Assembly (NCBI GenBank): GCA_963840145.1
Contig: CAWIXR010000001.1
Span: 42,327-106,326 of the forward strand
Reading direction: 5' to 3'
Source of the DNA: an uncultured Chloroflexia bacterium
GTDB taxonomy: Bacteria > Chloroflexota > Limnocylindria > QHBO01
DNA length: 64,000 bases
Shown here: one piece after another, positions 18,901 through 46,384 of the stretch
How positions within the stretch are numbered: the stretch's first letter is position 1
Layout of the letters: every line of letters begins with the position of its first letter
Position numbers and translations under genes: made by a program
The notes under the pieces: model-generated
Databases searched by the model: none
Seen by the model: only the letters and a program-made list of their open reading frames with translations
What the model was told of the DNA's origin: nothing

Positions 18901-20327
18901 CGCCCGTCCTCCAGGCGCTCGACGGCGGCGCGGAACGCGTCGCCGCGTGCCGCGTAGTCGACGAACATGTCGAAGCTGGCTGCCGCCGGCGAGAGCAGCG
19001 CGACGTCGCCGGGCCGCGTCGCGTCGGCGGCCACCGTCACCGCCTCGTCCATCGACGCGGCGCGCCGCACGGGCACGCGGCTCCTCAGCAGGGCCTCCAG
19101 CTCGTCGGCCGTCTCCCCGATCAGCACGGCCGCCTTGCAGCGCGTCGCGATCGCGTCGGCGAAGGCGCCGTACTCGAGGCCCTTGTCCTTGCCGCCGGCG
19201 ATCAGCACGATCGGCGCGTCGAACGCCTCGAGCGCCGCGATGGCCGCCTGCGGGATCGTCGCCTGCGAGTCGTTGATCCAGCGCACGCCACCGTGCTCGG
19301 CGATCGTCTCGAGCCGGTGCGGGACGCCGGCGAAGGTTCGCGCGGCGACGCCGATCGCGGCGGCGGGGACGCCGACGAGGGTCGCGGCCAACGCCGCGCC
19401 GAGGACGTCGGCGAGCATGTGGCGCCCCGGCAGGCGCACCTGGTCCGCGGCGACGACCCGCTCCCCCGCCACGACGACCCAGCCGTCGTCGAGCCACGCC
19501 TCGGTCGGCCCGTGACCCGGCCGCTGCATGCCGTACCACGCCAGCGACGCCGGTGGCAGCCGCTCCCCGAGGTCGCGGCAGCCAGGGTCGTCGTGGTTGA
19601 GCACGACCCGTCCCGCCGGCGCGGTGAGCTCCGCCAGGAGCGCCTTGACGGCGCGGTACGCCTCCACCGTTCCGTGGCGGTCGAGGTGGTCCTCGGCGAC
19701 GTTCGTGTAGAGCGCGACGTCGACGCCGCGGCTGATCGTCGGCAGCTGGAGCTCACTCAGCTCCAGCACGACCCAGTCATCGGGTCCGAGCTCGAGGGAG
19801 CGCTCGACCAGCGGCGTCCCGATGTTGCCGCCCAGGACCGTCGAGATGCCGCCCGCCTCCAGCATCGCGGCCAGCAGCGAGGCGGTCGTGGTCTTGCCCT
19901 TCGTGCCGGTCACGCCCGCGAGTCGCGCATCGGTCAGGCGCAGGAAGAGGTCGACCTCGCTGATGACCTCCGCACCGCGCGCCTCGGCGGCGAGCAGCGC
20001 CTCGCGCAGCCAGGGGTCGGTCGTCGGGAAGCGGGCCGAGACCGATGGAGAGGTGACGAGCAGGTCGGCGTGCTCGAGCAGCGCGGCCGCCTCGGCCTCG
20101 CTCACGTCGAGGGCCAGGCGTACCGGGCGGGCCCCGAGCGCTGAGATGGCATCGGCCAGCTCGGAGGCCGGCCGCCGGTCGTAGGCGGCGACGACCGCGC
20201 CGGCATCCGCCAGGAAGCGGCAGGCGGCGATGCCGGAGCGAGCCAGGCCGAGCACGACGGTGCGCAGGCCGCGAAGGTCGTCGGCGGACCCGATCGGCGT
20301 CGATGGGGCAGTCATCATCGGTCCATC
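18897..20327 (-). CDS. murD: UDP-N-acetylmuramoylalanine--D-glutamate ligase
   Basis: Begins MMTAPSTPIG…; VLGLARSGIAACRFL Rossmann N-terminus and GVTGTKGKTTT P-loop. The track ORF extends further upstream in the same frame. Confidence 0.9.
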   Translation of the reverse strand, partial: DGPMMTAPSTPIGSADDLRGLRTVVLGLARSGIAACRFLADAGAVVAAYDRRPASELADAISALGARPVRLALDVSEAEAAALLEHADLLVTSPSVSARFPTTDPWLREALLAAEARGAEVISEVDLFLRLTDARLAGVTGTKGKTTTASLLAAMLEAGGISTVLGGNIGTPLVERSLELGPDDWVVLELSELQLPTISRGVDVALYTNVAEDHLDRHGTVEAYRAVKALLAELTAPAGRVVLNHDDPGCRDLGERLPPASLAWYGMQRPGHGPTEAWLDDGWVVVAGERVVAADQVRLPGRHMLADVLGAALAATLVGVPAAAIGVAARTFAGVPHRLETIAEHGGVRWINDSQATIPQAAIAALEAFDAPIVLIAGGKDKGLEYGAFADAIATRCKAAVLIGETADELEALLRSRVPVRRAASMDEAVTVAADATRPGDVALLSPAAASFDMFVDYAARGDAFRAAVERLEDGR

Positions 20328-21313
20328 TAGAGCTGCTGGTACGTGGCGAGGAAGAGGCTGAAGCCGAGCAGCCCGGCGAGCGCCGCGACGATCCAGAAGC
20401 GCAGCGTGATCTTCTCCTCCGCCCAGCCGATGAGCTCGAAGTGGTGGTGCAGCGGCGTCATGCGGAAGATGCGGCGCCCGCGGAAGCGGTAGCTGAGCAC
20501 CTGGATGACCACGCTCATGATCACGGCGAAGAAGACGATCCCGACGACCGCCAGGAGCGGCAGCTGGCCGTTCACGGTGGCGACGACTGCCAGCGTGGCG
20601 CCGAGGCTCAGCGACCCGGAGTCGCCCATGAAGATCTGGGCCGGGTGGACGTTGAACCAGAGGAAGCCCATCAGCGCACCGATGACGAGCGCGCAGAACA
20701 CCGCCAGCTCCGGGTGCGCGAGCTTGATGTCGGCGACCGGGACGAGGCTGATCAGCAGGTAGGCGACGAAGCTGAAGATGAGGACGCCGCCGGCGAGCCC
20801 GTCGAGGCCATCGGTCAGGTTCACCGCGTTGCTGGTGCCGACGATGACGAACGCGATGAAGCCGATGAGCAGGACCGGCGCCACCTCGATCTGGCCGACG
20901 AGCGGGATGTTCACGCCGGTCAGGTGGTAGTGGCTCCAGATGTAGACCGCGGCGAGGACCGCGACCCCGGTCTGCCACACGAGCTTCCAGCGGCCGCGCA
21001 TGCCGACGCCGCTGCGGACGTTCACGAAGTCGTCGATCGCGCCGAGGATGCCGACCCCGACCAATGTCAGCATCGGCGTCAGCGTGGCCGGACTCTCGAG
21101 TCGCAGGGCCATCGCCAGGAAGAGGACGACGACCACGACGAGCATGCCGCCCATCGTCGGCGTGCCGGCCTTGCCGTAGTGCGCCTCCGGCCCGTCGCTG
21201 CGGATCTGCTTTCCGTAGCCGAGGCGCTGGAGCAGGTTGATGTAGATCGGCGCCAGGATCACCAGGCCGACGAAGGCCAGCAGCAGCGCGACGACCATGT
21301 CGATGAGGTTCAC
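20327..21313 (-). CDS. mraY: phospho-N-acetylmuramoyl-pentapeptide transferase
   Basis: 328 aa, 10-TM MraY with the DD…D and HHH motifs (…TPLHHHFELIGW…). Confidence 0.95.
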   Translation of the reverse strand: MNLIDMVVALLLAFVGLVILAPIYINLLQRLGYGKQIRSDGPEAHYGKAGTPTMGGMLVVVVVLFLAMALRLESPATLTPMLTLVGVGILGAIDDFVNVRSGVGMRGRWKLVWQTGVAVLAAVYIWSHYHLTGVNIPLVGQIEVAPVLLIGFIAFVIVGTSNAVNLTDGLDGLAGGVLIFSFVAYLLISLVPVADIKLAHPELAVFCALVIGALMGFLWFNVHPAQIFMGDSGSLSLGATLAVVATVNGQLPLLAVVGIVFFAVIMSVVIQVLSYRFRGRRIFRMTPLHHHFELIGWAEEKITLRFWIVAALAGLLGFSLFLATYQQL

Positions 21314-22749
21314 GGCGCGCTCCCCCGCAGCAGGTCGACGGCCCGGTCGAGACCGATGCCACGCGAGCCCTTCAGCAGCACGACGTCCCCAACCCCGGGC
21401 GCGACCTCGCGCTCAAGGACCGCGACCGCCTCCTCGGCGTCCGCCGCGCTCGCGACCGGGATGGCATCGGCGCCCTCCGCGATCCAGGCGCCACGCGGCC
21501 CCACGGTGACGAGCATGTCCACGGCGGCCGCCGCCCTAGCGCCGATCTCGCGATGCAGCCGCTCCTCGTCCGGGCCAAGCTCGAGCATGTCGCCGAGCAC
21601 CGCGATCCGCCGGCGGCCGGCCGGCAGCGGAGTCTCGGCCAGGAAGTCGAGCGCGGCGGCGACGCTGACAGGCGACGCGTTGTAGGTGTCGTCGACGAGC
21701 GTCGCGCCGGAGGCGGCCTCGACGACCTGCATGCGATGGGCGGCCCGGCTGCCCGCCCCAAGCGCTTCCGCGGCGTCGTCGATCCCGATCCCCAGCCGCT
21801 CGGCGACGGCAAGGGCGGCCAGGGCATGCGGGACGAGGTGGCGGCCGGGGGTCCCGCTGCGCATTCGCCGCGTGGTCCACGGCGCGCGGACCGTGAATTC
21901 GGTGCCGGCCAGGCCGTGGCTGACGACGTCGGTTGCGCCGACGTCGGCCGACGGGCCGAGCCCGAACGTCCGCACCGCGGCCGGCGTCACCTGCGCCATG
22001 GCCGCGACGCGCGGGTCGTCCGCATTCAGCACGGCCAGGCCGTCGCGCGGCAGCGCGGCGGGGAGCTCGGCCTTGGCGGCCGCGATGCGCTCGATGCTGC
22101 CGGCGCGCTCGAGGTGCGTCGGGTGGACCGCAAGCACGACACCGACCTCCGGCCGGGCGATCTCCGCAAGCAGTGCGATCTCGCCGACGGTGTACATGCT
22201 CATCTCGAGCACGGCAGCCTCGTGGGACGGCTCGAGCCGCAGGAGCGTGATCGGCAGGCCGGTCTCCGAGTTGAGGTTGCCGTCGTTGCGCAGCGTGGTG
22301 AGGCCGCGCGACAGGACGTCGGCGGTGATCTCCTTGGCGATCGTCTTGCCCGTCGAACCGGTGATACCCACCACACGCACCGCGTGGCGAGACCGCCACC
22401 AAGCGGCGAGATCCTGGAGCGCGCGAAGCGCATCGGCCACGACGACCTGCGGGGCGGAGCGGAGGTCCTGCGGCAGGTCGATCGGCCGCTCGACGAGGGT
22501 GGCCGCGGCTCCGGCGCGGAGCGCATCGGCCACGAAGGCATGGCCGTCCGCGCGCTCACCTGGGAGCGCGACGAAGATGGAGCCGGGGGTGACGCGGCGC
22601 GAGTCGACCGACGCGCCGGTGATCGAGAACGAGGCCGCCGGAGCTGGCCCGTGCAGCCGGCCGCCGGTCGTGGCGAGCACGTCCTCGAGGCGGATGGTGG
22701 GAGGCACGCGCACCCCGCTGCGGACTTCGTTCGAGTCTAGCAAGGTCAC
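21310..22749 (-). CDS. murF: UDP-N-acetylmuramoyl-tripeptide--D-alanyl-D-alanine ligase
   Basis: GITGSTGKT P-loop and the MurF-specific NDGNLNSETGLP motif. Confidence 0.9.
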   Translation of the reverse strand: MTLLDSNEVRSGVRVPPTIRLEDVLATTGGRLHGPAPAASFSITGASVDSRRVTPGSIFVALPGERADGHAFVADALRAGAAATLVERPIDLPQDLRSAPQVVVADALRALQDLAAWWRSRHAVRVVGITGSTGKTIAKEITADVLSRGLTTLRNDGNLNSETGLPITLLRLEPSHEAAVLEMSMYTVGEIALLAEIARPEVGVVLAVHPTHLERAGSIERIAAAKAELPAALPRDGLAVLNADDPRVAAMAQVTPAAVRTFGLGPSADVGATDVVSHGLAGTEFTVRAPWTTRRMRSGTPGRHLVPHALAALAVAERLGIGIDDAAEALGAGSRAAHRMQVVEAASGATLVDDTYNASPVSVAAALDFLAETPLPAGRRRIAVLGDMLELGPDEERLHREIGARAAAAVDMLVTVGPRGAWIAEGADAIPVASAADAEEAVAVLEREVAPGVGDVVLLKGSRGIGLDRAVDLLRGSAP

Positions 22750-24536
22750 GGCTGTGCGACCGGCTCGGCGGGCCGGTCCGGCGGGATGGCGAGGTAGTCG
22801 AGCACCTGGGGCATGAGGCGGGCGTACACGTTCTCCGGGCGATCGGGCATGGTGCGTCCACCGGCGCCGGCCGGTCGATGGATGAGGACGAGCGTCACCA
22901 GCTTCCTGTCACCCGCCGGGAGGATGCCGACGAAGCTCGAGTCGACCCAGCCCTCGCGGTAGACCCAGCGCTCCACGAGCTGGCCGTCCGGGCCCTCGAC
23001 CATGATCGGTGCGGCGATCTGGGCGGTGCCCGTCTTGCCGGCCACGGTGTAGCCGGCCACCTGGGCGCCGGTCGCGATGCCGTCGTCGATCGCGTTCGTG
23101 AGCAGCTCGATCATCGTCTGGGCCGTCTCCTCCCGCATGATCCGCTCCGCGGGCGGCTGCGCGGCCTCATGGAACGTGCCATCCGGGTCGGTCCAGCCGG
23201 CGACCACGTGTGGGGTCACCAGCTCACCCCCGTTCGCGAAGGCCGCGTAGCCCGCGACGAGCTGGACGGCCGTCAGGCTCAGCCCCTGCCCGAACGAGTT
23301 CTGGGCGGCGGTCAGGTCGCCGCTGGCGTTCGCGCCGTCGGGGTCCCACACCACCCCGCTCGCCTCGCCGGCCAGCTCGATGCCGGTCTGCGCGCCGAAT
23401 CCGAAGCGCAGCAACGCCTCGTACAGCTCTCGGCGCCCGAGCTCGAGGCCGATCTTCGCGGCGCCGACGTTGTTCGATAGCGCCAGCACATCGGCCGCCG
23501 TGACGGGCCCGTGGCCGTACGGGCGGTCCCAGCGGTCGGCATTCTGGATGCGGATGACGCCGACGCGCAGGTTGTTGTCGTCGAGGAAGGTGTCATCGGT
23601 GTCGATCGCCCCGGCGTCGAGCGCGGCGGCCACGGTGAAGGCCTTCATCACCGATCCGGGCTCGTACTGCCGCGCAACCGCCGGGTTGCTGAACAGCTCG
23701 CCGTCGGTGACGGCGAAGTCGTTGGCGTCGTACGACGGGTAGCTGGCCATCGCCAGGATCGCGCCGGTCTCGGCGTCCATGATCACGCCGGTCGCGCCTG
23801 CCGCGCGATTCATCCGGTAGGTGTCCCAGATCTCCTGCTCGAGCATGTGCTGGACGCCGAGGTCGATCGTGAGGCTGAGGTCGGCGCCGTCGACCGGCTC
23901 GAGGAGCAGCGTCGCGGAGTCCGCGATCCTCCGGCCGATGACGTCCTCCTGCGCGCTCACCGCGCCAGGCGTCCCAGCCAGCAGCGCGTTCTCGCCGGCC
24001 TCGATCCCGTACTGGCCATGCCCGTCGACGTCGACGAAGCCGAGCAGCTGGGCCGCCAGCGTCGTGTCGTTGGCGACGCCCTGGACCGGGTAGACGCGCT
24101 GCGTCTCGGGCAGCAGGCCGATGCCGCGCAGGTCGAGCGAACGGATCCGCTCAGCCGCCTCTGGCGTGATGCGCCGCTTGAGCCAGACCCAGTCGCGCTC
24201 GCCGTCGAGGCTGGCGCGAAGCTGGGCCGAGGAGATGTCGAGGATCGGCGCGAGGATCCGCGCCGTCTTCCCCGGGTCGTCGATCAGCGGCGGGGTGGCG
24301 AAAACCGACTGCAGCTCGATCGAGGTGGCCAGCAGCGCCCCGTTGGCATCGGTGATCTCGCCACGCTCGGCCGGGATCTGCTCCTGCTGCGAGAGCTGGC
24401 CGAGCGCCATCGTCGACAGCCACGGCTGCTGGACGACCTGCCACCAGACGAGGCGCGCGCCGATCGCCGTCGCCACGAATGCGACGAGGATGAGGAGGAC
24501 CATGGCGCGGGCACGGCTGTCGGTCCTGGCGAGCAT
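22746..24536 (-). CDS. ftsI: penicillin-binding protein 2x / FtsI (peptidoglycan D,D-transpeptidase)
   Basis: N-terminal TM, PBP dimerisation domain, and transpeptidase motifs (SVMK…, SNN, KTGT). Confidence 0.9.
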   Translation of the reverse strand: MLARTDSRARAMVLLILVAFVATAIGARLVWWQVVQQPWLSTMALGQLSQQEQIPAERGEITDANGALLATSIELQSVFATPPLIDDPGKTARILAPILDISSAQLRASLDGERDWVWLKRRITPEAAERIRSLDLRGIGLLPETQRVYPVQGVANDTTLAAQLLGFVDVDGHGQYGIEAGENALLAGTPGAVSAQEDVIGRRIADSATLLLEPVDGADLSLTIDLGVQHMLEQEIWDTYRMNRAAGATGVIMDAETGAILAMASYPSYDANDFAVTDGELFSNPAVARQYEPGSVMKAFTVAAALDAGAIDTDDTFLDDNNLRVGVIRIQNADRWDRPYGHGPVTAADVLALSNNVGAAKIGLELGRRELYEALLRFGFGAQTGIELAGEASGVVWDPDGANASGDLTAAQNSFGQGLSLTAVQLVAGYAAFANGGELVTPHVVAGWTDPDGTFHEAAQPPAERIMREETAQTMIELLTNAIDDGIATGAQVAGYTVAGKTGTAQIAAPIMVEGPDGQLVERWVYREGWVDSSFVGILPAGDRKLVTLVLIHRPAGAGGRTMPDRPENVYARLMPQVLDYLAIPPDRPAEPVAQP

Positions 24537-24579
24537 GTCGGTCTCCGTGCTGCGGCCGCGTTCGGCCGCGTGAGATGGG

Positions 24580-24993
24580 TCAATCGGCGGACGTATCCGC
24601 GGGCTTGGCGAACGTGACGGCCGCGCCGTCGAGGTGCTGAAGGCCGAGCTGGAAGCGCGCGCGCCGGATGATCTCCGCCGGCGAGCGGGCCTGCGCGACC
24701 GCGGTGATCAGCTGCTGCTGCTCGGCGCGGCGATCGGCCAGGCTGAGGGCGAGGTTGTCGATCTCGTAGCCGCGTGCAGCGACGCCGGTCGATTGGCTGA
24801 GGTAGAAGATGGCGAGGGCGGCGGCGACCACGATCGCCACCAGGAACGGCCGAACGTCAACCGATGCGGCCAGCCGGATGCGGCCCGCGCGACGCGTTCG
24901 GCGCGCGGGGCGGCTGGCCTTGCGGCTTCGGACTCGCGACCGCCCGCCCAGAAACCACGGGCTCGTGGCGGGTCGGGCGCCCATGACGGCCAT
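24580..24993 (-). CDS. ftsL: cell division protein FtsL-like (basic N-terminus, single TM, coiled coil)
   Basis: Position between rsmH and ftsI. TM segment FLVAIVVAAALAIFYL followed by a heptad-like region. Confidence 0.65.
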   Translation of the reverse strand: MAVMGARPATSPWFLGGRSRVRSRKASRPARRTRRAGRIRLAASVDVRPFLVAIVVAAALAIFYLSQSTGVAARGYEIDNLALSLADRRAEQQQLITAVAQARSPAEIIRRARFQLGLQHLDGAAVTFAKPADTSAD

Positions 24994-25017
24994 TGCTCGG
25001 TACCCCTCGGTCGGTGA

Positions 25018-25230
25018 CTAGGCCGCGGTCGCGCGGCGGCGGGCCGAGATGGCGAAGGTGGTCGGCGCCTCGAAGTTGGCACCCTCCTCGATCTCGATGG
25101 CAGCGACCTGGTCGCTGAGCCAGTAGGCCTCCTCGCTCGCCGCGCGAAGGCGCCGCTCGCGAAGGTCGCGCTGCCGAGCCGAATACATCCGGCGGCGGCT
25201 GGCCTGGTGACGCGTACGTCCCTTGCTCAC
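25018..25230 (-). CDS. small hypothetical protein (70 aa) between rsmH and ftsL
   Basis: Track ORF with high GC3, consistent with coding. Basic N-terminus, acidic C-terminus. No recognisable family. Confidence 0.4.
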   Translation of the reverse strand: MSKGRTRHQASRRRMYSARQRDLRERRLRAASEEAYWLSDQVAAIEIEEGANFEAPTTFAISARRRATAA

Positions 25231-25259
25231 TCGGGTGACCCTCCTGCTCGTGCTCGCGC

Positions 25260-26219
25260 CTACGCGAGCTTCTCGGCGACGCGCAGCTTCGCGCTGCGCG
25301 CGCGGCGATTCCGCCGGACCTCGTCTGGGCCCGCGGTGACGACGCCCTTGGTGATCGCGCGCAGCTGCGCGCGGTGGCCGCAGGTGCAGACCGGCGGCAA
25401 CGGATCCTCGATGCAGTCGCGGCTCTCGCGAGCGACGAAGCGCTTGACGATCCGGTCCTCGAGGCTGTGATAGCTGATGACGGCCATCCGGCCGCCGGGT
25501 CGGAGCGCGGCGAGCGCGCCGGCCAGGCCCGACGAGAGGACCTCCACCTCGCGGTTGACCGCGATGCGCAGCGCCTGGAAGGTCCGGGTTGCCGGGTGGA
25601 TGCGGCCGGCATCGGCGCCGCCCGGGCGCGAGGGCGAGGCCGCGGCGACGACCGACGCCAGGTCGGCGGCGGTCACGAGCCGACCCTCCGCGCGCGCCGC
25701 CACGATCGCCTTCGCGATGCGGCCTGCACGGCGCTCTTCACCAAACGTCGCGAGGATTCCGGCGAGCTCTCGCTCCGAGGAGCGGTCGATGAGCTCGAGA
25801 GCCGATACACCACTGGTTTCATCGAATCTCATGTCCGGCGGCGCATCGGCCGCAAAGCTGAATCCCCGGCCGGGATCGGCAAGCTGGTAGCTGCTGAGGC
25901 CGAGGTCGAAGAGAACGCCGTCCAGTGGCGCCACGCCGGAGGCGATCGCCGCGTCGTAGATCGCCTCGAAGTTGGCGTGGCGCAGCACGACCCGGTCACC
26001 AAATGGGGCCAGCACGGAGGTCGCCTCCGCGATGGCCGCCCGGTCGGCATCGATGCCGAGCAGGCGGCCATGCGGAGACGTCGCCTCCAGAATCCGCTCG
26101 GCGTGCCCACCGCCGCCGACCGTGCAGTCCGCCACGGAGCTGCCAGGACCCAGCGCGAGCGAGGCAATGACCTCGTCGACCAGGACCGGCAGGTGCCCTT
26201 CTCCCATGGCGCGTCGCAC
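25260..26219 (-). CDS. rsmH: 16S rRNA (cytosine1402-N4)-methyltransferase
   Basis: HLPVLVDEV…DCTVGGGGHAERIL… SAM-binding motifs typical of MraW/RsmH. Confidence 0.92.
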   Translation of the reverse strand: MRRAMGEGHLPVLVDEVIASLALGPGSSVADCTVGGGGHAERILEATSPHGRLLGIDADRAAIAEATSVLAPFGDRVVLRHANFEAIYDAAIASGVAPLDGVLFDLGLSSYQLADPGRGFSFAADAPPDMRFDETSGVSALELIDRSSERELAGILATFGEERRAGRIAKAIVAARAEGRLVTAADLASVVAAASPSRPGGADAGRIHPATRTFQALRIAVNREVEVLSSGLAGALAALRPGGRMAVISYHSLEDRIVKRFVARESRDCIEDPLPPVCTCGHRAQLRAITKGVVTAGPDEVRRNRRARSAKLRVAEKLA

Positions 26220-26277
26220 CTCTGTTGTCGAACGGCGGGCCGACCGGCCCGGAGACGCATGAATGGCCGGGGCACCG

Positions 26278-26727
26278 TCAGATGCCCAGGTCGGCGAGGT
26301 GCTCGGCGAGCGCCTCCGGCTCGTTCTCGATCTGGGACCGATACGGTCCCCACCGCGTCGGCGCCCAGATCTCGAGTCGGTTCAGCGCGCCGACCACGAC
26401 CACCTCGCTCTCGGTCAGGCCGGCGTACTCGCGGAGATAGCTCGGGACGAGGACCCGCCCCTGGCGATCGAGCTCCACCTCGACCGCCCCCGAGCTCATG
26501 AAGCGGCCGAACTGTCGCGCGGCCGCGTTTGTCGTCGGCAGGCCCTGGATTCGGGCCGCCAGCTCTTCCCAGGTGTCCGACGGAAAGATCGCCAGGCAGC
26601 CATCCAGCCAGCGCGCCAGCGTGGCGCCCTGTGCCAGCCGCGGGCGGAAGCGGACCGGGACCGCCACTCGGCCCCGATCGTCCAGTGCGTGCCGGAACTC
26701 CCCGGTGAGGAAGGTCGCCCGCTCCAT
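26278..26727 (-). CDS. mraZ: transcriptional regulator MraZ
   Basis: 149 aa with the duplicated MraZ fold motifs (…DDRGRVAVP…, …DRQGRVLVP…). Confidence 0.92.
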   Translation of the reverse strand: MERATFLTGEFRHALDDRGRVAVPVRFRPRLAQGATLARWLDGCLAIFPSDTWEELAARIQGLPTTNAAARQFGRFMSSGAVEVELDRQGRVLVPSYLREYAGLTESEVVVVGALNRLEIWAPTRWGPYRSQIENEPEALAEHLADLGI

Positions 26728-26740
26728 CTGGCCTGTCTTT

Positions 26741-26770
26741 CACCACTAGTCCCCATTTGGCCCCATTTGG
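26741..26770 (-). promoter_or_regulatory. MraZ operator: three direct repeats with 10-bp phasing (ccaaaTGGGG / ccaaaTGGGG / actagTGGTG on the minus strand)
   Basis: Read directly. Lies between the predicted Pmra -10 and the mraZ start, as in E. coli, where MraZ binds TGGGN direct repeats. Confidence 0.6.
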
Positions 26771-26784
26771 AACCACAGGGCGCC

Positions 26785-26813
26785 ACTATACAGGTCGCAA
26801 GGTGCCCGTCAAG
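26785..26813 (-). promoter_or_regulatory. Pmra-like sigma-70 promoter: -35 TTGACG (complement 26808-26813), 17-nt spacer, -10 TATAGT (complement 26785-26790)
   Basis: Read directly on the minus strand: ccccTTGACGggcaccttgcgacctgTATAGTggcg. Confidence 0.55.
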
Positions 26814-28338: not shown

Positions 28339-28688
28339 GTCCCTGGAGAGCGGCCTGTAAGCCGAGTTCTGTCGTGAGCCGATGGATCGCCAATCGGTCA
28401 CGGACGGTCATCCATCTGTGCGACCTACCCGGGAGCTGAGCGAGCAACCTGCTGCGGCCGAAGCCGCCTTGCGCTCCCCTATTCGGTCTTGCTCCGGCTA
28501 GAGCTTGCCGCGTTTCACTCCCGCCGGCCCGGCCTCGTTGGCTGGGGGCGGGCATCGTCACTGTGGCGCTATTCCTCGCCTCACGGCGGACGGGCGTTAC
28601 CCGCTAGCCTGCTCTGAGGAGCTCGGACTTTCCTCGGACGCGGCCTTTCGACCGATGCGCCCGCGACCATCCGGCCGCCTCCAGGGAG
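28339..28688 (-). ncRNA. rnpB: RNase P RNA, bacterial type A
   Basis: Minus-strand RNA contains GAGGAAAGUCCGAGCUCC (P4 5' strand), GGGUAACGCCCG, GGGAGUGAAA, and ACAGAACUCGGCUUACAGG (P4 3' strand with compensatory CCGAG/CUCGG). P1 pairs CCCUGGAGGCGGCC…GGCCGCUCUCCAGGG. Confidence 0.9.
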
Positions 28689-28783
28689 AAACAGTGTACC
28701 CGACTCGAACATGCGTTCGACCTGGCTCCTGGCCGATGCGCCCGATGCGCAAGTGCGCCGCGTACGCGGCGCGAAGGACCAAC

Positions 28784-29203
28784 CTACCAGGGCGTCGCGC
28801 CATCTCCCGGCCCGTCGATGGCCACGTTGCTGAGCCGGTCGGCATCCTTGTTCAGCTCGCGCGGGACGTGGCCGACGGTATAGCCCTCGAGCTCGCGCAG
28901 CAACGACATCGTCGCCTCGTGGATCGGCTTCAGGTCTGGGTGCTTCACCTTATAGATACCGCTGATCTGGCGGGCGACGAGCTCGGAGTCCATCCGCAGG
29001 TCGACGTGCGTGGCGCCGAGCCGGCGTGCCTCCTCGAGCGCCAGCAGCACGGCGGTCCACTCCGCGACGTTGTTCGTGGCATGCCCGAGCGGCTCGGCGA
29101 TCTCCGCCACGGTCCGCCCGTCGGCGTCTCGCAGGATCGCGCCGGCGCCGGCAGGCCCGGGATTGCCGCGCGCCGCGCCATCGGTGTAGATCAGCAGCCT
29201 CAC
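28784..29203 (-). CDS. rnhA: ribonuclease HI
   Basis: VRLLIYTDGAARGNPGPAGAG…NNVAEWTAVLLALE…; catalytic D/E/D residues present. GTG start overlaps the sdhB TGA (GTGA). Confidence 0.88.
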   Translation of the reverse strand: MRLLIYTDGAARGNPGPAGAGAILRDADGRTVAEIAEPLGHATNNVAEWTAVLLALEEARRLGATHVDLRMDSELVARQISGIYKVKHPDLKPIHEATMSLLRELEGYTVGHVPRELNKDADRLSNVAIDGPGDGATPW

Positions 29204-32144: not shown

Positions 32145-32546
32145 TCAGCCCCATGGCATGAACGGGCGGGTCATGATGAAGGCCAGCGGGATCATCGCCA
32201 CGACCGTCGCGCCGATCACGCCGTAGGTCAGCGGCCGGTAGTAGACGGTCAGCCCCGGCCAGAAGTCCATGGCGATCACCCGCAGCCCGTTGAGCGCGTG
32301 GTAGACGAGAGCCGCCATCAGCACGACCTCGCCGAGCCGCGCGGGCAGGTTCTTGAAGATGCCGACCGCGGCGTCGTAGACCTCCGGACCGAAGAGGACC
32401 GTCGAGGTCTCGACGACATGCATGAACAGGTAGAAGAGCACGCCGAGCCCGCTGACGCGGTGGCCGAACCAGGCCAGCTCGGCCCATGACACGCGGTATC
32501 CGAAGACGGTGATCACGTCGGCGAAAACGATCCTCCCACGGGGCAC
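32145..32546 (-). CDS. sdhC: succinate dehydrogenase cytochrome b subunit
   Basis: 133 aa, three TM helices with a conserved His. First gene of the sdh operon. Confidence 0.75.
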   Translation of the reverse strand: MPRGRIVFADVITVFGYRVSWAELAWFGHRVSGLGVLFYLFMHVVETSTVLFGPEVYDAAVGIFKNLPARLGEVVLMAALVYHALNGLRVIAMDFWPGLTVYYRPLTYGVIGATVVAMIPLAFIMTRPFMPWG

Positions 32547-32583: not shown

Positions 32584-33591
32584 CTATCGCGCCAACCGGG
32601 CCGCCACCGCCTCGGCGAACTCGCGGGTGCCTGCGGCCCCGCCCAGATCGTAGGTCACCGTCGTGCCCTCGGCGATCACGTCGCGAGTGGCCGTCTCGAC
32701 GGCGTCGGCCGCATCGGTTTCGCCGAGGTGGCGCAGCATCAGCGCGCCGGACAGGATCAGTGCGGTGGGGTTCGCCTTGTTCTGGCCCGCGTACTTCGGG
32801 GCCGATCCGTGGACGGGCTCGAAGACGGCCGCCTTCTCGCCGATGTTCGCCCCCGGCGCGACTCCCAGCCCGCCGACGAGCCCGGCCGCCAAGTCGCTGA
32901 CGATGTCGCCGTAGAGGTTCGGAAGGACGAGCACGTCGTAGAGCTCGGGCTTCTGGACGAGCTGCATGCACATGTTGTCGACGATGCGGTCCTCGAACTC
33001 GACTCTGCCCGCGTACTCCGTGGCGACCTGCTGGCAGCTCTCGAGGAAGAGGCCGTCCGACAGCTTCATGATGTTCGCCTTGTGCACCGCGGTGACCTTG
33101 CGCCGGCCGTTCTTGACGGCGTACTCGAAGGCGTAGCGCGCGATCCGCTGCGACGCAGCGCGGGTGATGATCTTGATGCTCTCGGCCGCGTCCGGTCCGA
33201 CACGGTGCTCGATCCCCGCGTACAGGTCCTCGGTGTTCTCGCGGACGATGATCAGGTCGACGTCCTCGTAGCGACTCTCGACGCCGGCCATCGTGCGCGC
33301 GGGCCGGACGTTGGCATACAGCTCGAGCGCCTGGCGCAGGCCGACGTTGACGGAGCGGAACCCGGAGCCGACGGGCGTCGTGATCGGTCCCTTCAGAGCG
33401 ATGCTGTTGGCGCGAATGGACTCGAGCACCCGCTCCGGCAGCGGCGTTCCCTCGCTGGCGATCGTCGCCTCGCCGGCCTCCTGGACATCCCACTCGAAGC
33501 CGATGCCGGTCGCCTCCAGCACCCTCCTGGCCGCCACGGCCAGCTCTGGACCGATCCCGTCCCCGGGGATCAGCGTGACGGTGTAGCTCAC
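32584..33591 (-). CDS. icd: isocitrate dehydrogenase, NAD-dependent type (isocitrate/isopropylmalate dehydrogenase family)
   Basis: [16 protein letters not shown]…, …[19 protein letters not shown]… Start taken at the GTG preceded by GAGGTGAT; the track ORF extends to 33663. TCA-cycle context argues for IDH rather than LeuB. Confidence 0.8.
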
Positions 33592-33696
33592 CGGGTGATC
33601 ACCTCGCGTGGGGCCGGTCAAAGCGCCGGCGTACGGTTCCCGAGTGTAGCGGTCCGTGGGCATTGGCCTGCGAGTCGCCGGGGTCGGCGACCCTGT

Positions 33697-33815
33697 GTTG
33701 CGCCGAGTGCAACCAAGTGCGAAGGAAAGGCCGCTCGTTCAACCTGGGTTGCGTCCGGTGCACCACGCGTCGAAGGAACGACCGTTCGCTCGGAATTGGT
33801 TGCACCGCATGCAAC
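33697..33815. promoter_or_regulatory. Three palindromic sites GTTGC-N7-GCAAC, 51 bp apart (33697-33713, 33748-33764, 33799-33815), each within a degenerate ~51-bp repeat unit, in the icd/sucC divergent promoter region. The third site lies next to a -10-like TAGAAT (33841-33846).
   Basis: Read directly: GTTGCgccgagtGCAAC, GTTGCgtccggtGCACC, GTTGCaccgcatGCAAC. Confidence 0.55.
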
Positions 33816-33886
33816 TCTCGGGGTCGGGCACGAACCCCGCTAGAATCGGGCTCCCCGAGTCATTCCGTTCAGAGGAGCCTGCCGGC

Positions 33887-35027
33887 GTGAAGCTCCAGGA
33901 GTATCGGTCCAAGGAGATCCTCGCCCGTCACGGCGTCCCGCTGACCGCCGGCGAGACGGCGACGACGCCGGCGGACGCGCGCGCCGCGGCCGAGCGGATC
34001 GGCGGCCCGGTGGTGATCAAGGCCCAGGTGCTCGTCGGCGGCCGCGGCAAGGCCGGCGGCGTGAAGGTCGCGCAGACGCCGGCCGAGGCGGAAGAGCGGG
34101 CGCGCGAGATCATCGGCCTCGACATCAAGGGCACGACCGTGAAGACCGTGCTCGTCGCGCCGGCGGCGAAGATCGCAAAGGAGTTCTACCTCGGGCCTGA
34201 TCCTCGACCGCGCGGCGAAGGCGATCACCGTGATCGCGAGCGCCGAGGGCGGCGTCGAGATCGAGGAGACGGCGCGGACGAACCCCGAGGCGATCCTGCG
34301 GCTGTCGCTGCACCCGCTCATCGGCCTCCAGGAGCACGAGGTGCGGCGCATCGGCTTCTTCCTGGGCATCCCGGCCGAGCTGCGCAAGGACTTCGCATCG
34401 ATGATGCGCGGGCTGTACCGGGCCTTCGTCGAGTCCGACGCCGACCTCGCCGAGATCAACCCGCTGGTCCTGACCGATGCGGGCCAGCTCGAGGCCCTCG
34501 ACGCGAAGATCGTGCTCGACGACTCGGCGCTCCCCCGCCACCCCGACCTGGAGGAAATGCGCGACCTCAACGAGGAGGAGCCATCCGAGATCGCGGCGCG
34601 CGAGGCGGGCATCAGCTTCATCAAGCTCGACGGGTCCATCGGCTGCATGGTCAACGGTGCCGGCCTGGCGATGACGACGATGGACCTCGTCAAGCTGGCC
34701 GGCGGCGAGCCCGCGAACTTCCTCGACATCGGCGGTGGCGCCAAGGCCGATCGGGTGGCCGCGGCCTTCAAGATCATCCTCGACGATCAGAACGTGAAGG
34801 CCATCCTCATCAACATCTTCGGCGGCATCACCCGCGGCGACGAGGTCGCCCGCGGCATCGTCGAGGCCCGCTCGAAGCTCACGCGCGATGTGCCGATGGT
34901 CGTCCGCATCGTCGGCACGAACGCCGAAGAGGCGAAGCCGATCCTCGCGAAGGCGAACCTCATCACCGCCGACTCGCTCGACGACGCGGCGGCCAAGGCG
35001 GTGGCTGCGGTCGGGGGTGCGGCGTGA
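33887..35027 (+). CDS. sucC: succinyl-CoA synthetase (ADP-forming) beta subunit, interrupted by a 1-nt frameshift in the GGG run at 34193-34195
   Basis: N-terminus [19 protein letters not shown]…AKEFYLG is in frame 2. The continuation [25 protein letters not shown]… through the C-terminus is in frame 0. Deleting one G restores a full-length SucC. GTG start is preceded by AGAGGAG. Confidence 0.85.
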
Positions 35028-35905
35028 GCATCCTCGTCAACCGCGACACCCGGCTGCTGGTCCAGGGCATCACCGGTCGCGAGGGCGAGTTCCACTCGAC
35101 GGCGATGCTCGAGTACGGCACGGACATCGTGGCCGGCGTGACGCCCGGCAAGGGCGGGCAGTCGGCGCTGGACGGTCGCGTGCCGGTGTTCGACACCGTG
35201 GCCGATGCGGTCGCCCAGACCGGCGCGAACGCCTCGTGCATCTTCGTCCCGGCGGCCTTCGCCCCCGACGCGATGCTCGAGGCGGCGGACGCGGGCGTCC
35301 CGCTGGTCGTCTGCATCACCGAGGGCGTCCCCGCGCTCGACATGCTCACCGTCTACCACGTGCTGCGCGCGAAGGGCGTGCGGCTGATCGGCCCGAACTG
35401 CCCGGGGCTGACCTCGGTCGGCGAGGCCAAGGTCGGGATCATCCCCGGCAACATCCACGCGCGCGGGCCGGTCGGCCTGGTGTCCCGTTCCGGGACGCTG
35501 ACCTACGAGGTCGTCCAGGCCATGACCGATGCGGGCATGGGCCAGACGACGACCCTCGGGATCGGCGGCGACCCGATCGTCGGCACGAGCTTCATCGACG
35601 CCCTCGACCTCTTCAACCAGGACCCCGAGACCGAGGCGATCGTGATGATCGGCGAGATCGGCGGCGAGGAGGAGGAGAAGGCGGCGGCCTTCGTTGCCCG
35701 CGAGGTGCGCAAGCCGATGGCCGCCTTCATCGCCGGCCGCACCGCCCCGCCCGGACGGCGGATGGGCCACGCCGGGGCGATCATCTCGACCACTGGCGGC
35801 GGGACCGCCGAGTCGAAGCGGGCCGCGCTCGAGGAGGCCGGCGTGCGCGTCGCCGACTCGCCTTCGCAGATCCCGCAGCTGCTGCGAGACGCCGGCGTCG
35901 GCTAG
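35024..35905 (+). CDS. sucD: succinyl-CoA synthetase alpha subunit
   Basis: [21 protein letters not shown]…, with the CoA-binding and phosphohistidine regions. GTGA overlap with the sucC stop. Confidence 0.93.
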
Positions 35906-35974
35906 GCGGTCGGGCTGCGCCCCGACTGGCGGATCCGCGCGGTCCGCGCCATCAGCAGCTCGAAACCGCATCCA

Positions 35975-36397
35975 TCAGGGCCGCTCCTGCACGTCGAGCA
36001 GCTCCCAGAGGACGCCGTTGAGCGAGCGCGGGTGGACGAAGGCGACCGTGCCATGGGCTCCGGGCCGCGGCTCGCGATCGATCAGCTCGGCCTCGGCGGC
36101 GGCCAGCGCCTCGAGCGAGGCCGGCAGGTCATCGGTCAGGAAGCAGACATGGTGGACGCCCTCGCCATGAGTGGCGAGGTAGCGGGCGACGCCGCCCTCG
36201 TCGTCGATCGGCTCGACCAGCTCGATCCGCGCCGACGGATCGGGGCCGGTCGGCAGGAAGACGAGGCGCACGCGCTGGGGAGCGAACGTCATCGGCGGCC
36301 CCTCTGGCTCGAGGCCGAATAGCTCCCGGTAGCGGGGCAGCGCCTCGTCGATCGAGCGGACGACGATCGCGACGTGATGGATCGGCCCGATGCTCAC
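35975..36397 (-). CDS. mce: methylmalonyl-CoA epimerase (VOC/glyoxalase fold)
   Basis: [28 protein letters not shown]…[12 protein letters not shown]… GTG start overlaps the mutase TGA stop. Confidence 0.75.
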
Positions 36398-37995
36398 GGG
36401 CGGTGCTCGCCCCACACGCCGCGCAGCGCGGTGGCGATCTCGCCGAGAGTGACGTCCGCCTCGACGGCGGTGCGGATGCGGGGCAGGACGTTCTCGGTGC
36501 CGGTCGCCGCGGAGGTCAGCGCGGCCAGGGCGGCGTCGGCGGCGGCCCGGTCGCGTCGCGCGCGGACGGCTCGCGTCCGCTCGACCTGCTGCTCCTCGAG
36601 CTCGGGGTCGATCGCCTGCGGGGCCGGGCGCTGCTCGTCACCCTCGTCGGCGAATGCGTTGACGCCGACGATGACCCGCTCCCCGGCCTCGATCGCCCGC
36701 TGTACCGCGTACGCCGCGTCGCCGATCGCATCGGGCTGGTAGCCGGCCTCCAGCGCGACGAGCGTGCCGCCGAGCTCGTCGATGTGCGCCAGCTCGGCGA
36801 CGGCGCCGGCGAAGATCGTCTCGGTCAGGGTCTCGACGTAGTACGAGCCCGCCAGCGGGTCGACGGTCGCTGCGACGCCGGCCTCGTGATACAGCACTTG
36901 TTGTGTTCGGAGGGCGAGGCGGGCAGTCGCCGGCGTGGGTAGGCCGAGCGCCTCGTCCAGGGCATTCGTGTGCAGCGACTGCGTCCCGCCGAGGACCGCG
37001 GCCAGCGCCTGGACGGTCGTGCGCACGACGTTGACGTCCGGCTGCTGCGCGGTGAGCGTCGAGCCGCCGGTCTGGACGTGGAATCGCATCGCCAGGCTCT
37101 TTGGATCCTTCGCCCCGAACCTGTCGCGGGCGACGGTCGCCCAGGTGCGCCGAGCGGCGCGAAACTTCGCGACCTCCTCGAGCAGGTCGCCGTGGGCGGC
37201 GAAGAAGAAGGAGAGGCGCGGCGCGAAGTCGTCGAAGGCCATCCCGGCGGCCAGCGCCGCATCGGCATAGGCGATCGCGTTGGCGACCGTGAAGGCAACC
37301 TCCTGGATCGCCGTGGATCCCGCCTCGCGCATGTGGTAGCCGCTGATGCTGATCGTGTTCCATGCCGGCAGCTCAGTGCGGCAGTAGGCGAAGGTGTCGG
37401 TCACCAGGCGCATCGAAGGGCCGGGCGGGAAGATGTAGGTGCCCCGCGCGATGTACTCCTTGAGGACGTCGTTCTGGATCGTCCCACGAAGCCGATGCGG
37501 GTCGACGCCGCGGCGGCGCGCCACCGTCTCGTACAGCATCAGCAGGATCGCGGCGGTGGCGTTGATCGTCATCGAGGTGGAGACCTCGCCCGGGTCGATC
37601 CCGTCGAGGAGCAGCTCCATGTCGTCGATCGAGTCGATCGGCACCCCGGTCCGCCCCACCTCGCCGACCGCCATCGGGTCGTCGGAGTCGTACCCCATCT
37701 GGGTCGGCAGGTCGAAGGCGACCGACAGGCCGGTCTGGCCGCTGGCGAGGAGGTAGCGGAAGCGGCGGTTCGTCTCCTCGGCCGAGCCGAAGCCGGCGTA
37801 CTGGCGCATCGTCCACGGCCGGCCCCGATAGCCGTCCGGCCGAATGCCGCGGGTATACGGGAACGCGCCGGGCTCTCCCAGCGCGGCCGCCGGATCGAAG
37901 TCGGTGAGGTCCGCCGGGCCATAGACCGGCTCGATCTCGATGCCGGACGCGGACCGATGCGGACGGCGCCGCTCCGGCGCGTCGGGCTCGCTCAT
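36394..37995 (-). CDS. methylmalonyl-CoA mutase large subunit, catalytic (TIM-barrel) domain only; no B12-binding domain
   Basis: …[61 protein letters not shown]… The 533-aa product ends before any B12-binding domain. Confidence 0.88.
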
Positions 37996-38017
37996 CGGCC
38001 TCCGATTGTAGCCGTGC

Positions 38018-38482
38018 CTATTCGAGCCGCAGCAGCCCCGCGCCCGTGGCGACGGTCTGGCCGGGGACGACCTCGACCTCGATGACGCGGCCGTCGCGCG
38101 GGGCGCGAACCTCGTTCTGCATCTTCATCGCCTCGATCGTGAGCAGTGGTTGGCCGTCGGTCACCTCGTCGCCGGCGGCCACCCCGACGGTAACGATCAG
38201 CCCGGGCAGGGTCGCGCGCACTTCGACCGGGCCGGAGTGGGTGCGCGCCTCGGTCTCGGCCTCGGCCAGGACCCGCTCCCGCCAGGAACGGACGGTGACG
38301 GGGATCCGACGGCCACGAAGAGTCACCGTCCAGTCAGTCCCCTGTCCTTCCACAAGGACAGGCAGCGAGCGCTCGCCGTCGGACAGGCGGGCCACGCCGT
38401 GGGCGCGGTCGATCCAGTCGAGCCGCCAGCCATCCGGCGTGGGAATTGGCTCACCGTCGACGCGAGTCTCGAGTTCGCTCAC
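38018..38482 (-). CDS. biotin carboxyl carrier / biotin-requiring subunit (separate gene)
   Basis: 154 aa. C-terminal biotinyl domain ends …[29 protein letters not shown]…. GTG start overlaps the TGA of the upstream biotin carboxylase (GTGA). Confidence 0.75.
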
Positions 38483-39999
38483 TCGCGCAGTCCCTCGCGC
38501 CGGCCGAGCTCGCCCCAGGCCGAGCCGCGTTCCGGGACGGCGGCCCAACCGGATCGGGCGCTGGCGCGTCGCGCGGTCGTCGCCGCGACGGCCGACAACG
38601 CGCGATCCTCGTCGGTGAGCGATGGACCGTTCCCCCATCGGTCGGCGATGAGGCCGGTGTCGTAATCGCCGGCGACGAATGCCGCGTCGTCGACGAGCCA
38701 GCGCAGGAATCCGGCATCGGTCTGGAGCCCGCCGATCTGCGTCTCGTCGAGCGCTCGGCGCAGGCGGTCGATGGCGCTCGGCCGGTCGTCGGCGTGGACC
38801 ATCAGCTTGGCAAGCAGCGGGTCGTACTCGGGCCGCAGGTCCGTATCGCCCTCGATGCCCGCGTCGACGCGCACGCCCGGCCCCGACGGCATCACCCAGG
38901 CACCGATGCGTCCGGCGGTCGGTCGGAAGCCGTCGTACGGATCCTCGGCGTAGAGGCGGACCTCGATTGCGTGCCCGCGGCGCGGGGCATCCAGCACCTC
39001 GGGCGTCAGCCGCTCTCCTGCCGCGATGCGAATCTGCCACGCGACAAGGTCGAGTCCGGTGGTGAGCTCGGTGACGCCGTGCTCGACCTGGAGGCGAGTG
39101 TTCATCTCGAGGAAGTAGTGGCTGCCGTCGGCGACGAGGAACTCGACGGTGGCCGCGTTGTGGAACTCGACGGTTCCGGCGACGCGGCGCGCGGAGTCGA
39201 ACAGGGCCTCGCGCAGCGCGTTGTCCACCGCCGGTGACGGGGACTCCTCGACGAGCTTCTGGTGGCGGCGCTGGACGGAGCAGTCGCGCTCCCCGAGGAC
39301 GGCGAGGTTTCCGTGCCGGTCGCCGAGCAGCTGGACCTCGACGTGCCGGGCGGGGGCGACGAGGCGCTCGACGTAGATCGTGCCGTCGCCGAACGCCGCC
39401 TCGGCCTCTCGGCGCGCGGCCTCCATCGCCGGCCGCAGTTCTTCCGCTCCATCGACGCGGCGCATGCCTCGGCCGCCGCCGCCCGCCGCGGCCTTCAGCA
39501 TCACCGGATAGCCGATGTCGCCGACCGCGTCGACGTCGTCCTCCAGCGCGACCGTCGTGCCCGGAACGATCGGGACCCCCGCCTCGGCTGCCGACCGGCG
39601 CGCGGCCAGCTTGTTGCCGAGGGCCTCGAGGGCGGACGGCGGCGGGCCGACGAAGGCGATGCCCGCCGACTCGACTGCGCGCGCGAACGCCGCATCCTCG
39701 CTGAGGAACCCGTAGCCGGGATGGATCGCTTCGGCGCCACTCCGTTTCGCCGCCGCGATCACGGCGTCGACCGACAGGTACGAATCGCGCGCGGCGGGCG
39801 GGCCGATCCGCTCCGACCGGTCCGCCAGCCGGACGTGCAGCGCGTCGGCATCGGCGTCGGAATGAATCGCGATCGGCGAGATGCCCAGCTCCCGGCACGC
39901 GCGAATCACGCGGATCGCGATCTCGCCACGGTTCGCGATCAGCAGCCGCCCAAACGGCGGTCCTGCGGTGTCCGTGCGCAAAGACGCCGGGTCGCTCAA
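38479..39999 (-). CDS. accC: biotin carboxylase (acyl-CoA carboxylase alpha, BC domain only)
   Basis: …RLLIANRGEIAIRVIRACRELGI…, ATP-grasp motifs, …LEMNTRLQVEHGVTE… TTG start overlaps the pccB TGA. The track ORF's extra N-terminus is pccB in the wrong frame. Confidence 0.9.
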   Translation of the reverse strand: MSDPASLRTDTAGPPFGRLLIANRGEIAIRVIRACRELGISPIAIHSDADADALHVRLADRSERIGPPAARDSYLSVDAVIAAAKRSGAEAIHPGYGFLSEDAAFARAVESAGIAFVGPPPSALEALGNKLAARRSAAEAGVPIVPGTTVALEDDVDAVGDIGYPVMLKAAAGGGGRGMRRVDGAEELRPAMEAARREAEAAFGDGTIYVERLVAPARHVEVQLLGDRHGNLAVLGERDCSVQRRHQKLVEESPSPAVDNALREALFDSARRVAGTVEFHNAATVEFLVADGSHYFLEMNTRLQVEHGVTELTTGLDLVAWQIRIAAGERLTPEVLDAPRRGHAIEVRLYAEDPYDGFRPTAGRIGAWVMPSGPGVRVDAGIEGDTDLRPEYDPLLAKLMVHADDRPSAIDRLRRALDETQIGGLQTDAGFLRWLVDDAAFVAGDYDTGLIADRWGNGPSLTDEDRALSAVAATTARRASARSGWAAVPERGSAWGELGRREGLRE

Positions 40000-41546
40000 A
40001 GCGGGATGTTGCCGTGCTTCTTCGGCGGCAGCGACTGGCGCTTGTTCTCCAGCATCGCCAGCGCACCGACAACTCGCGCGCGCGACTCGGACGGCTGGAT
40101 GACTTCGTCGACGTAGCCGCGCGCCGCGGCGATGTACGGATTCGCGAATCGTTCCTCGTACTCGGCGACGAGACGGGCGCGTTCCGCATCGGCGTCCTCG
40201 GCCTCGGCGATTCGGTCGCGGAAGATGATGTTCACCGCACCCTCGACGCCCATCACCGCGATCTCGGCCGTCGGCCAGGCAAAGTTCATGTCGCCGCGCA
40301 CATGCTTGCTGCTCATGACGTCGTACGCGCCGCCATACGCCTTGCGCGTGATGATCGTGACCTTTGGGACCGTCGCCTCGCAATAGGCGTACAGCAGCTT
40401 CGCGCCGTGCCGGATGATGCCGCGATGCTCCTGGTCGACGCCGGGCAGGAAGCCTGGCACGTCGACGAGTGTCAGCAGCGGCACGTTGAACGCGTCGCAG
40501 GTGCGAACGAATCGCGCGGCCTTGTCGGACGCGTCGATGTCGAGAACCCCGGCAAGCACCTCCGGCTGCTGCGCGACGATGCCCACGCTGCGGCCCTCGA
40601 TCCGCGCGAAGCCGCAGACGATGTTTCGCGCGAAGTGCTCATGGACTTCGGTGAACGAACCGCGGTCGACGATCCCGGCGATGACCGAGTGCATGTCGTA
40701 CGACTGCTTGGCGGAATCGGGGATCAACGCGTCGAGCGAGGCACCGTCATTCGATGGCGCCTCCCACTCCGCCCGCCGTGGCGTCAGGTCGACGTTGTTC
40801 TGCGGCAGGTAGCCGATCAACGTTCGCGCCAGCTCGAGCGCCTGCGGCTCACCCGGCGCGAGAAAGTGCGCGACGCCGCTTGACTCGTTGTGGACTCGCG
40901 CGCCGCCGAGCCCCTCGAAGTCGATCTCCTCGTGCGTCACCGTCTTCACCACGTTCGGCCCGGTGACGAACATGTAGCTCGTTCCCTCGACCATGACGAC
41001 GAGATCGGTGATGGCCGGCGAGTAGACCGCGCCGCCAGCGCATGGCCCCATCACCAGTGACAGCTGCGGTACGACACCGGACGCCAGGGTGTTGCGCAGG
41101 AAGATGTCGGCATAGCCGCCGAGGCTGACGACACCTTCCTGGATGCGCGCACCTCCGGAGTCGGAGAGGCCGATGATCGGCGCGCCGTTCTCCATCGCCA
41201 GGTCCATGACCTTGCAGATCTTCTCGGCGTGCGCCTCGGACAGCGAGCCGCCGAACACGGTGAAGTCCTGGCTGTACACAAAGACGAGCCGATCGTCGAT
41301 GCGACCGTAGCCGGTGACGACGCCGTCACCGAGATAGCGTTCCTCGTCGAGCCCGAACTCGCTGGCGCGATGCGTCACGAACGCATCGATTTCGGTGAAG
41401 CTGTCCTCGTCGAGCAGGAGGTCGAGCCGTTCGCGCGCCGAGAGCTTGCCGCGCGCGTGCTGCTGGTCGAGCCGTTTCGCTCCCCCACCCTGTCGCGCCT
41501 CCGTGCGCAATGTCGCCAGTCGCTGCAGCTTGTCGGCCGTCGACAC
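39996..41546 (-). CDS. pccB: propionyl-CoA carboxylase beta subunit / methylmalonyl-CoA carboxyltransferase
   Basis: Carboxyltransferase N- and C-halves (…GGARIQEG…, …RKAYGGAYDVM…). Start taken at the GTG preceded by AAGGAG. The track ORF's N-terminus (…VAQWLEQPAHNRTVAGSIPAG…) is actually a translated tRNA gene. Confidence 0.92.
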   Translation of the reverse strand: MSTADKLQRLATLRTEARQGGGAKRLDQQHARGKLSARERLDLLLDEDSFTEIDAFVTHRASEFGLDEERYLGDGVVTGYGRIDDRLVFVYSQDFTVFGGSLSEAHAEKICKVMDLAMENGAPIIGLSDSGGARIQEGVVSLGGYADIFLRNTLASGVVPQLSLVMGPCAGGAVYSPAITDLVVMVEGTSYMFVTGPNVVKTVTHEEIDFEGLGGARVHNESSGVAHFLAPGEPQALELARTLIGYLPQNNVDLTPRRAEWEAPSNDGASLDALIPDSAKQSYDMHSVIAGIVDRGSFTEVHEHFARNIVCGFARIEGRSVGIVAQQPEVLAGVLDIDASDKAARFVRTCDAFNVPLLTLVDVPGFLPGVDQEHRGIIRHGAKLLYAYCEATVPKVTIITRKAYGGAYDVMSSKHVRGDMNFAWPTAEIAVMGVEGAVNIIFRDRIAEAEDADAERARLVAEYEERFANPYIAAARGYVDEVIQPSESRARVVGALAMLENKRQSLPPKKHGNIPL

Positions 41547-41575: not shown

Positions 41576-41648
41576 TGGGCCCGGCAGGAATCGAACCTGC
41601 GACCGTCCGGTTATGAGCCGGTTGCTCTAACCATTGAGCTACGGGCCC
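41576..41648 (-). tRNA. tRNA-Met (anticodon CAT); elongator-like, although an Ile-lysidine tRNA cannot be excluded
   Basis: Reverse complement: GGGCCCGUAGCUCAAUGGUUAGAGCAACCGGCUCAUAACCGGACGGUCGCAGGUUCGAUUCCUGCCGGGCCCA. G1-C72 is paired, so it is not an initiator. The 3' CCA is not encoded in register. Confidence 0.85.
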
Positions 41649-46308: not shown

Positions 46309-46384
46309 TGGCTCCGGCGGTAGGACTCGAACCTACGACCAAGTGATTAACAGTCACCCGCTCTACCAACTGAGCTACGCCGGA
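46309..46384 (-). tRNA. tRNA-Asn (anticodon GTT)
   Basis: Reverse complement: UCCGGCGUAGCUCAGUUGGUAGAGCGGGUGACUGUUAAUCACUUGGUCGUAGGUUCGAGUCCUACCGCCGGAGCCA. CCA is encoded. Confidence 0.9.

Follow-up and report, generated by a model that had tools for sequence, protein, structure and literature searches.

A probable one-base consensus error splits sucC in a Limnocylindria soil MAG

As written, sucC in the window (the whole 64-kb stretch of DNA that was analysed) is not one uninterrupted open reading frame; after codon 103 the gene passes into another frame, within 34190-34197. The surplus base in this interval is very probably a consensus error in a MAG assembled from long reads, probably Nanopore-only and of the Flye/Medaka type. 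The organism most likely carries an ordinary and intact sucCD operon with a 379-aa beta subunit. An artefact is favoured because none of 81 related loci shares the lesion of this assembly, because a contig of the same species (L081) encodes the exact repaired protein, because similar lesions are confined to the long-read-only assemblies of the clade, and because sucC shows no decay, its Shine-Dalgarno sequence, start and GTGA coupling being intact. The locus is thus probably not a novel feature.

Reading frames of the sucC locus and the repaired protein

A preliminary description of this DNA had reported sucC as split by one surplus base, and this was confirmed by two-frame translation and by a split tblastn match. 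The features of the locus are as follows.

33871-33877, + strand: Shine-Dalgarno sequence AGAGGAG, 9 nt 5' of the sucC GTG start (read from the sequence)
33887-34195, + strand: N-terminal segment of sucC, 103 codons ending AKEFYLG, with the first half of ATP-grasp_2 (translation, tblastn, Pfam)
34190-34197, + strand: octamer CTCGGGCC with one surplus base (alignment to relatives and L081)
34196-35027, + strand: C-terminal segment of sucC, in the +1 frame to TGA, with the remaining ATP-grasp_2 and Ligase_CoA (translation, Pfam, tblastn)
34230-35027, + strand: 265-aa ORF from the first in-frame GTG, a truncated 'SucC' (ORF list)
35024-35905, + strand: sucD (alpha subunit), 293 aa, intact (Pfam CoA_binding and Ligase_CoA)
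33887-35905, + strand: frame 2, open between the sucC start and the sucD stop and giving a 672-aa chimera (ORF list, translation)

Translation from GTG 33887 yielded SucC as far as AKEFYLG, followed by Arg/Pro/Gly-rich junk. This N-terminal part had been given as 102 codons, where 103 are present with the start included. The frame of 34146 carries the remainder of SucC to the stop at 35025-35027. Translation bore out the earlier statement that the rest of the gene runs in another frame to the C-terminus and is GTGA-coupled to sucD, and the signals said to be intact are so: the Shine-Dalgarno sequence listed above, and the start GTG of sucD (35024), which shares bases with the sucC TGA. In tblastn against the window, residues 1-103 of the repaired SucC matched 33887-34195 (frame 2) and residues 103-379 matched 34194-35024 (frame 3). 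A coding-potential scan gave a strong coding signal on either side of the break; the frame-2 score collapsed over 34192-35021, where the score of the other frame was 246. A second copy of sucC or sucD was found nowhere within the 64-kb window (tblastn).

The N-terminal frame remains open through to the sucD stop at 35905 because the region is ~70% GC, and other long alternative-frame ORFs were listed in the same region. The resulting 672-aa chimera is composed of SucC(1-103), 277 junk residues and SucD, and had no exact match in the public protein collection.

Removal of one base gave a SucC of 379 aa, as a textbook SucC had been predicted to result. Pfam matched ATP-grasp_2 to residues 2-194 (profile positions 1-201, single stretch, E 1e-64) and Ligase_CoA to residues 254-371 (E 3e-29). 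Since ATP-grasp_2 matches as one stretch across repaired residues 2-194, the break lies inside this domain. Among the 120 proteins listed, the repaired SucC was 87-92% identical to SucC of 376-394 aa from Limnocylindria/Chloroflexota soil MAGs. An exact-sequence look-up located the repaired 379-aa protein verbatim on an independent ENA contig, L081. The product of the 265-aa ORF and the SucD of the window are also public verbatim (NCBI, ENA), each on a single contig, presumably the one from which the window comes. The repaired gene shares both domains and the GTGA overlap with the known ADP-forming succinate-CoA ligase beta subunit of translationally coupled sucCD operons; unlike an ordinary SucC gene, the gene of the window is split, as written, over two frames.

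The identity of the surplus base was examined at the break point. Positions 34180-34199 read GGAGTTCTACCTCGGGCCTG, with GGG at 34193-34195, and the wider stretch around the break, which includes this GGG, is AAGGAGTTCTACCTCGGGCCTGATCCTCGACCGC. Leu102-Gly103-Leu104 was restored equally well by deleting C34192, any G of 34193-34195, or either C of 34196-34197. In the alignment, relatives carry CTC-GGG-CTS or CTC-GGC-CTS at this point, and L081, from the same species, carries CTG-GGC-CTG. When L081, the nearest sequence, is taken as reference, C34192 is the base in surplus; it stands in T[C]G, outside any homopolymer. The sequence does not place the surplus base within the GGG run, and 'extra G' is one of three equivalent descriptions. 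The preliminary description had given a homopolymer sequencing or assembly error as the most likely cause of the split, beside an authentic frameshift, a pseudogene or +1 recoding. An error is supported by the unique lesion, the intact L081 and the long-read-only lesion pattern; the GGG homopolymer mechanism is not established, the comparison with L081 pointing to C34192 in T[C]G.

Related loci and sequencing technology

From sequence comparison, the host of the window is a soil MAG of the Limnocylindria (Chloroflexota). Eighty related loci were retained from one-genome-per-species GTDB contigs, and L081 was added to give 81. SucC was encoded in one continuous frame in 80/80 of the related genome loci, and the tblastn screen found a split sucC in 0/81. 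L081 (ENA ERZ25039541 contig_29634, 129 kb) is collinear with the window over 23878-44930. It is 97.4% identical over 19.7 kb and therefore belongs to the same species but to a different strain, and so its intact sucC is no proof for the strain of the window. With C34192 set aside, sucC of the window and of L081 differ by 1-2 synonymous changes (SNP at codon 119) and 0 non-synonymous changes. The two SucD proteins are not identical.

Divergence between the window and L081 was mosaic. It amounted to ~0.3% in a 5.5-kb block at ~33,500-39,000 and to 2-9% in the flanks. The near-identical block (~99.7%) holds sucCD, the methylmalonyl-CoA epimerase and mutase, and BCCP. This pattern suggests recent recombination, or a segment shared between co-existing strains.

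Eight proteins of the window (repaired SucC, SucD, Icd, SdhC, SdhD, SdhA, epimerase and mutase) were compared with all loci, and genes were scored as broken where they gave frame-split HSP pairs. Frame-split core genes occurred in 5/22 Nanopore-only loci (named 'MFD...contig_N'), with 10 breaks in ~37,000 aa compared, and in 0/58 short-read loci (k141/k127/NODE; ~91,000 aa), a difference with Fisher p = 0.0011. The genes split in the MFD loci were icd, sdhA, sdhD, mce, mcm or sucD. Real pseudogenes would not be expected to sort by sequencing platform. The break in sucD of one of these loci (L070) is GCT[C]GGT, and the lesion in sucC of the window is CCT[C]GGG.

Compared with the window, L081 contains ~26 isolated single-base insertions, nearly all of G or C. 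Some 18 are not in homopolymers, and three have the T[C]G context. The insertions occur at ~1 per 700 bp in the SNP-rich parts of L081 and are confined to its SNP-rich flanks; the near-identical block at 33,700-39,000 is free of them. The insertions coincide with sdhA, biotin carboxylase, carboxyltransferase and rsmH being called as fragments in L081; the copies in the window are single ORFs. Single G/C insertions outside homopolymers were seen to break core genes in the long-read-only assemblies L081, L043, L056, L070, L016 and L002. The core genes fragmented in such assemblies include sdhA, icd, sdhD, sucD, rsmH and carboxylase subunits.

MFD MAGs were produced from Nanopore reads only, using Flye with --meta --nano-hq and one round of Medaka, without short-read polishing (PMC12313526). 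When the MFD catalogue was screened by its authors for errors of Nanopore origin, coding density proved to be reduced in 73 genomes (0.5%) (PMC12313526). Indels in the Nanopore consensus are known to produce frameshifted gene calls (PMC9262707). We infer that the window also comes from a Nanopore-only assembly, from the contig size, the NCBI and ENA source pattern that it has in common with MFD MAGs, and the Flye-style names of its nearest relatives. The presumed source contig, of 408,795 bp, has a size that appears typical of long-read soil assemblies. The sucC lesion resembles the consensus indel errors of Nanopore-only assemblies, known from fragmented gene calls and IDEEL-type tests, in being a single-base split of a highly conserved gene in one assembly, and such lesions are over-represented in the long-read-only MAGs of the clade. 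It departs from the classic Nanopore error, which affects long homopolymers, in that the run concerned is no longer than a 3-mer and its surplus C, relative to L081, stands in T[C]G.

A mechanism that would give such a lesion is the merging of two alleles. Where reads come from mixed strains, both alleles of a wobble SNP might be kept as adjacent bases at the consensus or polishing step, leaving a one-base insertion. The assembled 10-mer CTCGGGCCTG is what would result exactly from keeping both alleles of CT(C/G)GGCCTG (Leu102) or of CTCGG(G/C)CTG (Gly103). Both wobble SNPs (Leu102 C/G and Gly103 G/C) occur among relatives. The idea fits the data because the L081 insertions lie in SNP-rich flanks and because at 32150 L081 has CAG[CG]CC, which merges two alleles, the C of the window and the G of another related locus (L015). 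If the surplus base is an artefact, the reads should be a mixture of CTCGGCCTG, CTGGGCCTG and CTCGGGCTG, and few or none should contain CTCGGGCCTG. A search of JGI metagenome contigs for the exact pattern AAGGAGTTCTACCTCGGN{1,2}CTGATCCTCGACCG, which covers the shifted and the unshifted version, returned 0 matches for either.

The coding-potential scan showed no other clear frame break in the 64 kb of the window, over ~55 genes including a giant ORF of 15 kb. Breaks that had been flagged at 38305/38572, 17629/17746, 1921/1981 and 25018-25260 were judged on inspection to be normal genes that adjoin or overlap; for the biotin carboxylase/BCCP pair, the gene boundary is the same in L081 as in the window. 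The window is otherwise clean and its error rate is therefore low, so that, before the other evidence is weighed, one genuine mutation is nearly as likely as one remaining error.

Alternative explanations

The alternative that survives best is that the base is a genuine and very recent one-base insertion, making sucC a nascent pseudogene or a segregating loss-of-function allele. We consider this unlikely. The conversion of succinyl-CoA to succinate would then be lost or carried out by another enzyme. The base is present in the sequence as given, the rest of the window has no frame breaks and the assembly is thus not generally error-ridden, and a second sucC/sucD copy is absent within the 64-kb window. 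In addition, sucCD is dispensable in some bacteria, in which knock-outs are viable. Against this, the gene bears no secondary lesions, its differences from L081, as given above, being 0 non-synonymous and 1-2 synonymous, and all sucC signals are intact. Marks of decay (extra lesions, an excess of non-synonymous changes, lost signals) are absent from sucC, although a very recent lesion would leave none either. The lesion is missing from 81/81 related loci, and real frameshifts in such genes are rare, as judged by the absence of split core genes from the short-read loci of the clade. Its form is also that of the technology-linked insertions in the sister assemblies.

Taken more broadly, a real surplus base would mean either a freshly inactivated sucC in the population or its rescue by low-level +1 slippage at GGG-CCU, and there is a small chance that one of these applies. 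A soil aerobe would in that case run its TCA cycle without a canonical succinyl-CoA synthetase, and the loss of sucC would adjoin an intact cluster for methylmalonyl-CoA mutase, epimerase and carboxylase that feeds succinyl-CoA.

Programmed +1 frameshifting is highly improbable. Under this explanation the tRNA-Gly slips from GGG to GGC with the rare CCU in the A site, and full-length SucC is made. A shift at the break would indeed yield normal SucC. CCU, the codon next after GGG, is rare here (4.7% of Pro codons), and an SD-like AAGGAG lies upstream at 34178-34183. As in prfB-type frameshifting, a +1 shift would be needed; the SD-like element and the rare A-site codon lie near the site. The shift is not conserved, however, all orthologues examined being in frame, one of them with 99.9% identical sucC DNA, and the site has no in-frame stop. 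AAGGAG itself represents the codons of the conserved Lys-Glu in AKE[FY]YLG and is also present in unshifted orthologues. In prfB, the stimulator is spaced by 3 nt; here AAGGAG is spaced by 6 nt from CUC and 9 nt from GGG, which does not match. Re-pairing from GGG to GGC would leave a C:C wobble mismatch. In its lack of a conserved shift and of an in-frame stop, its wrong SD spacing and its poor re-pairing, sucC of the window is unlike prfB. Rfam gave no recoding or riboswitch element in the window at the gathering threshold, or in 33560-34300 at E<=1.

The weakest alternative, that the 672-aa SucC N-terminus-linker-SucD or separate SucC fragments are real and functional products, can appeal to the open frame 2 and to GTG 34230, which could begin the 265-aa C-terminal fragment, but is next to negligible: the 277-residue 'linker' is out-of-frame Arg/Pro/Gly-rich sequence over which the frame-2 coding score collapses, long open alternative frames are common at ~70% GC, the break cuts ATP-grasp_2 in mid-domain, and no relative has this architecture. 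A SucC-SucD fusion gene of 672 aa was accordingly rejected on coding potential, as a by-product of the ~70% GC.

Consequences and other features of the window

With a consensus error as the preferred explanation, the biological interest of the locus is small and its practical value is one of caution. The public gene call is the truncated 265-aa SucC, and in automated metabolic reconstructions this MAG could appear to lack succinyl-CoA synthetase or to have an incomplete one. Most of the frameshifts left in high-GC Limnocylindria MAGs of the long-read-only kind are single G/C insertions not located in homopolymers; these frameshifts are concentrated at sites of difference between co-occurring strains. 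Polishing that targets homopolymers would not cure insertions of this kind.

A cluster for the route from propionate to succinyl-CoA follows sucCD directly on its 3' side, on the opposite strand (35975-41471, - strand). Its genes are those of methylmalonyl-CoA epimerase (Glyoxalase family), the mutase (533 aa), a BCCP-like biotinyl protein, biotin carboxylase and carboxyltransferase. The domain assignments of this cluster were taken from the gene table of L081.

The divergent intergenic region between icd and sucC contains, at 33697-33815, three copies of the palindrome GTTGC-N7-GCAAC at an exact spacing of 51 bp (33697, 33748 and 33799). The copies are embedded in two imperfect inverted arms of 46 nt. 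Allowing up to one mismatch, the motif has five matches in the window, three of them in this region, where 1.36 are expected by chance in all. The exact motif recurs in L081 and in 0/80 of the other relatives, and has no Rfam match. A regulator acting on the two divergent promoters, of icd and of sucCD, may use these copies as operators.

RNA genes were found as follows.

28341-28682, - strand: RNase P RNA class A, 160 bits
9213-9286, - strand: tRNA gene
41576-41648, - strand: tRNA gene
46312-46384, - strand: tRNA gene

The alignment of the window with L081 is rich in indels at ~28385-28803, an interval that takes in the greater part of the RNase P gene and the adjoining sequence. On the - strand, 14500-26800 holds mraZ and rsmH followed by genes of the sizes of PBP and mur/ftsW genes, each of them read as one ORF in the window. 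The gene order suggests a dcw-type cluster for cell division and the cell wall; MraZ and RsmH are named through Pfam labels of L081 and the remainder from gene sizes. The giant ORF begins at 49017 on the + strand and runs past the end of the window at 64000, with at least 4,994 aa uninterrupted over 15 kb. It contains nine right-handed beta-helix stretches, six NosD stretches and a CBM96 carbohydrate-binding module, with weaker matches to Y_Y_Y and Big_13, and probably encodes a huge secreted or surface protein.
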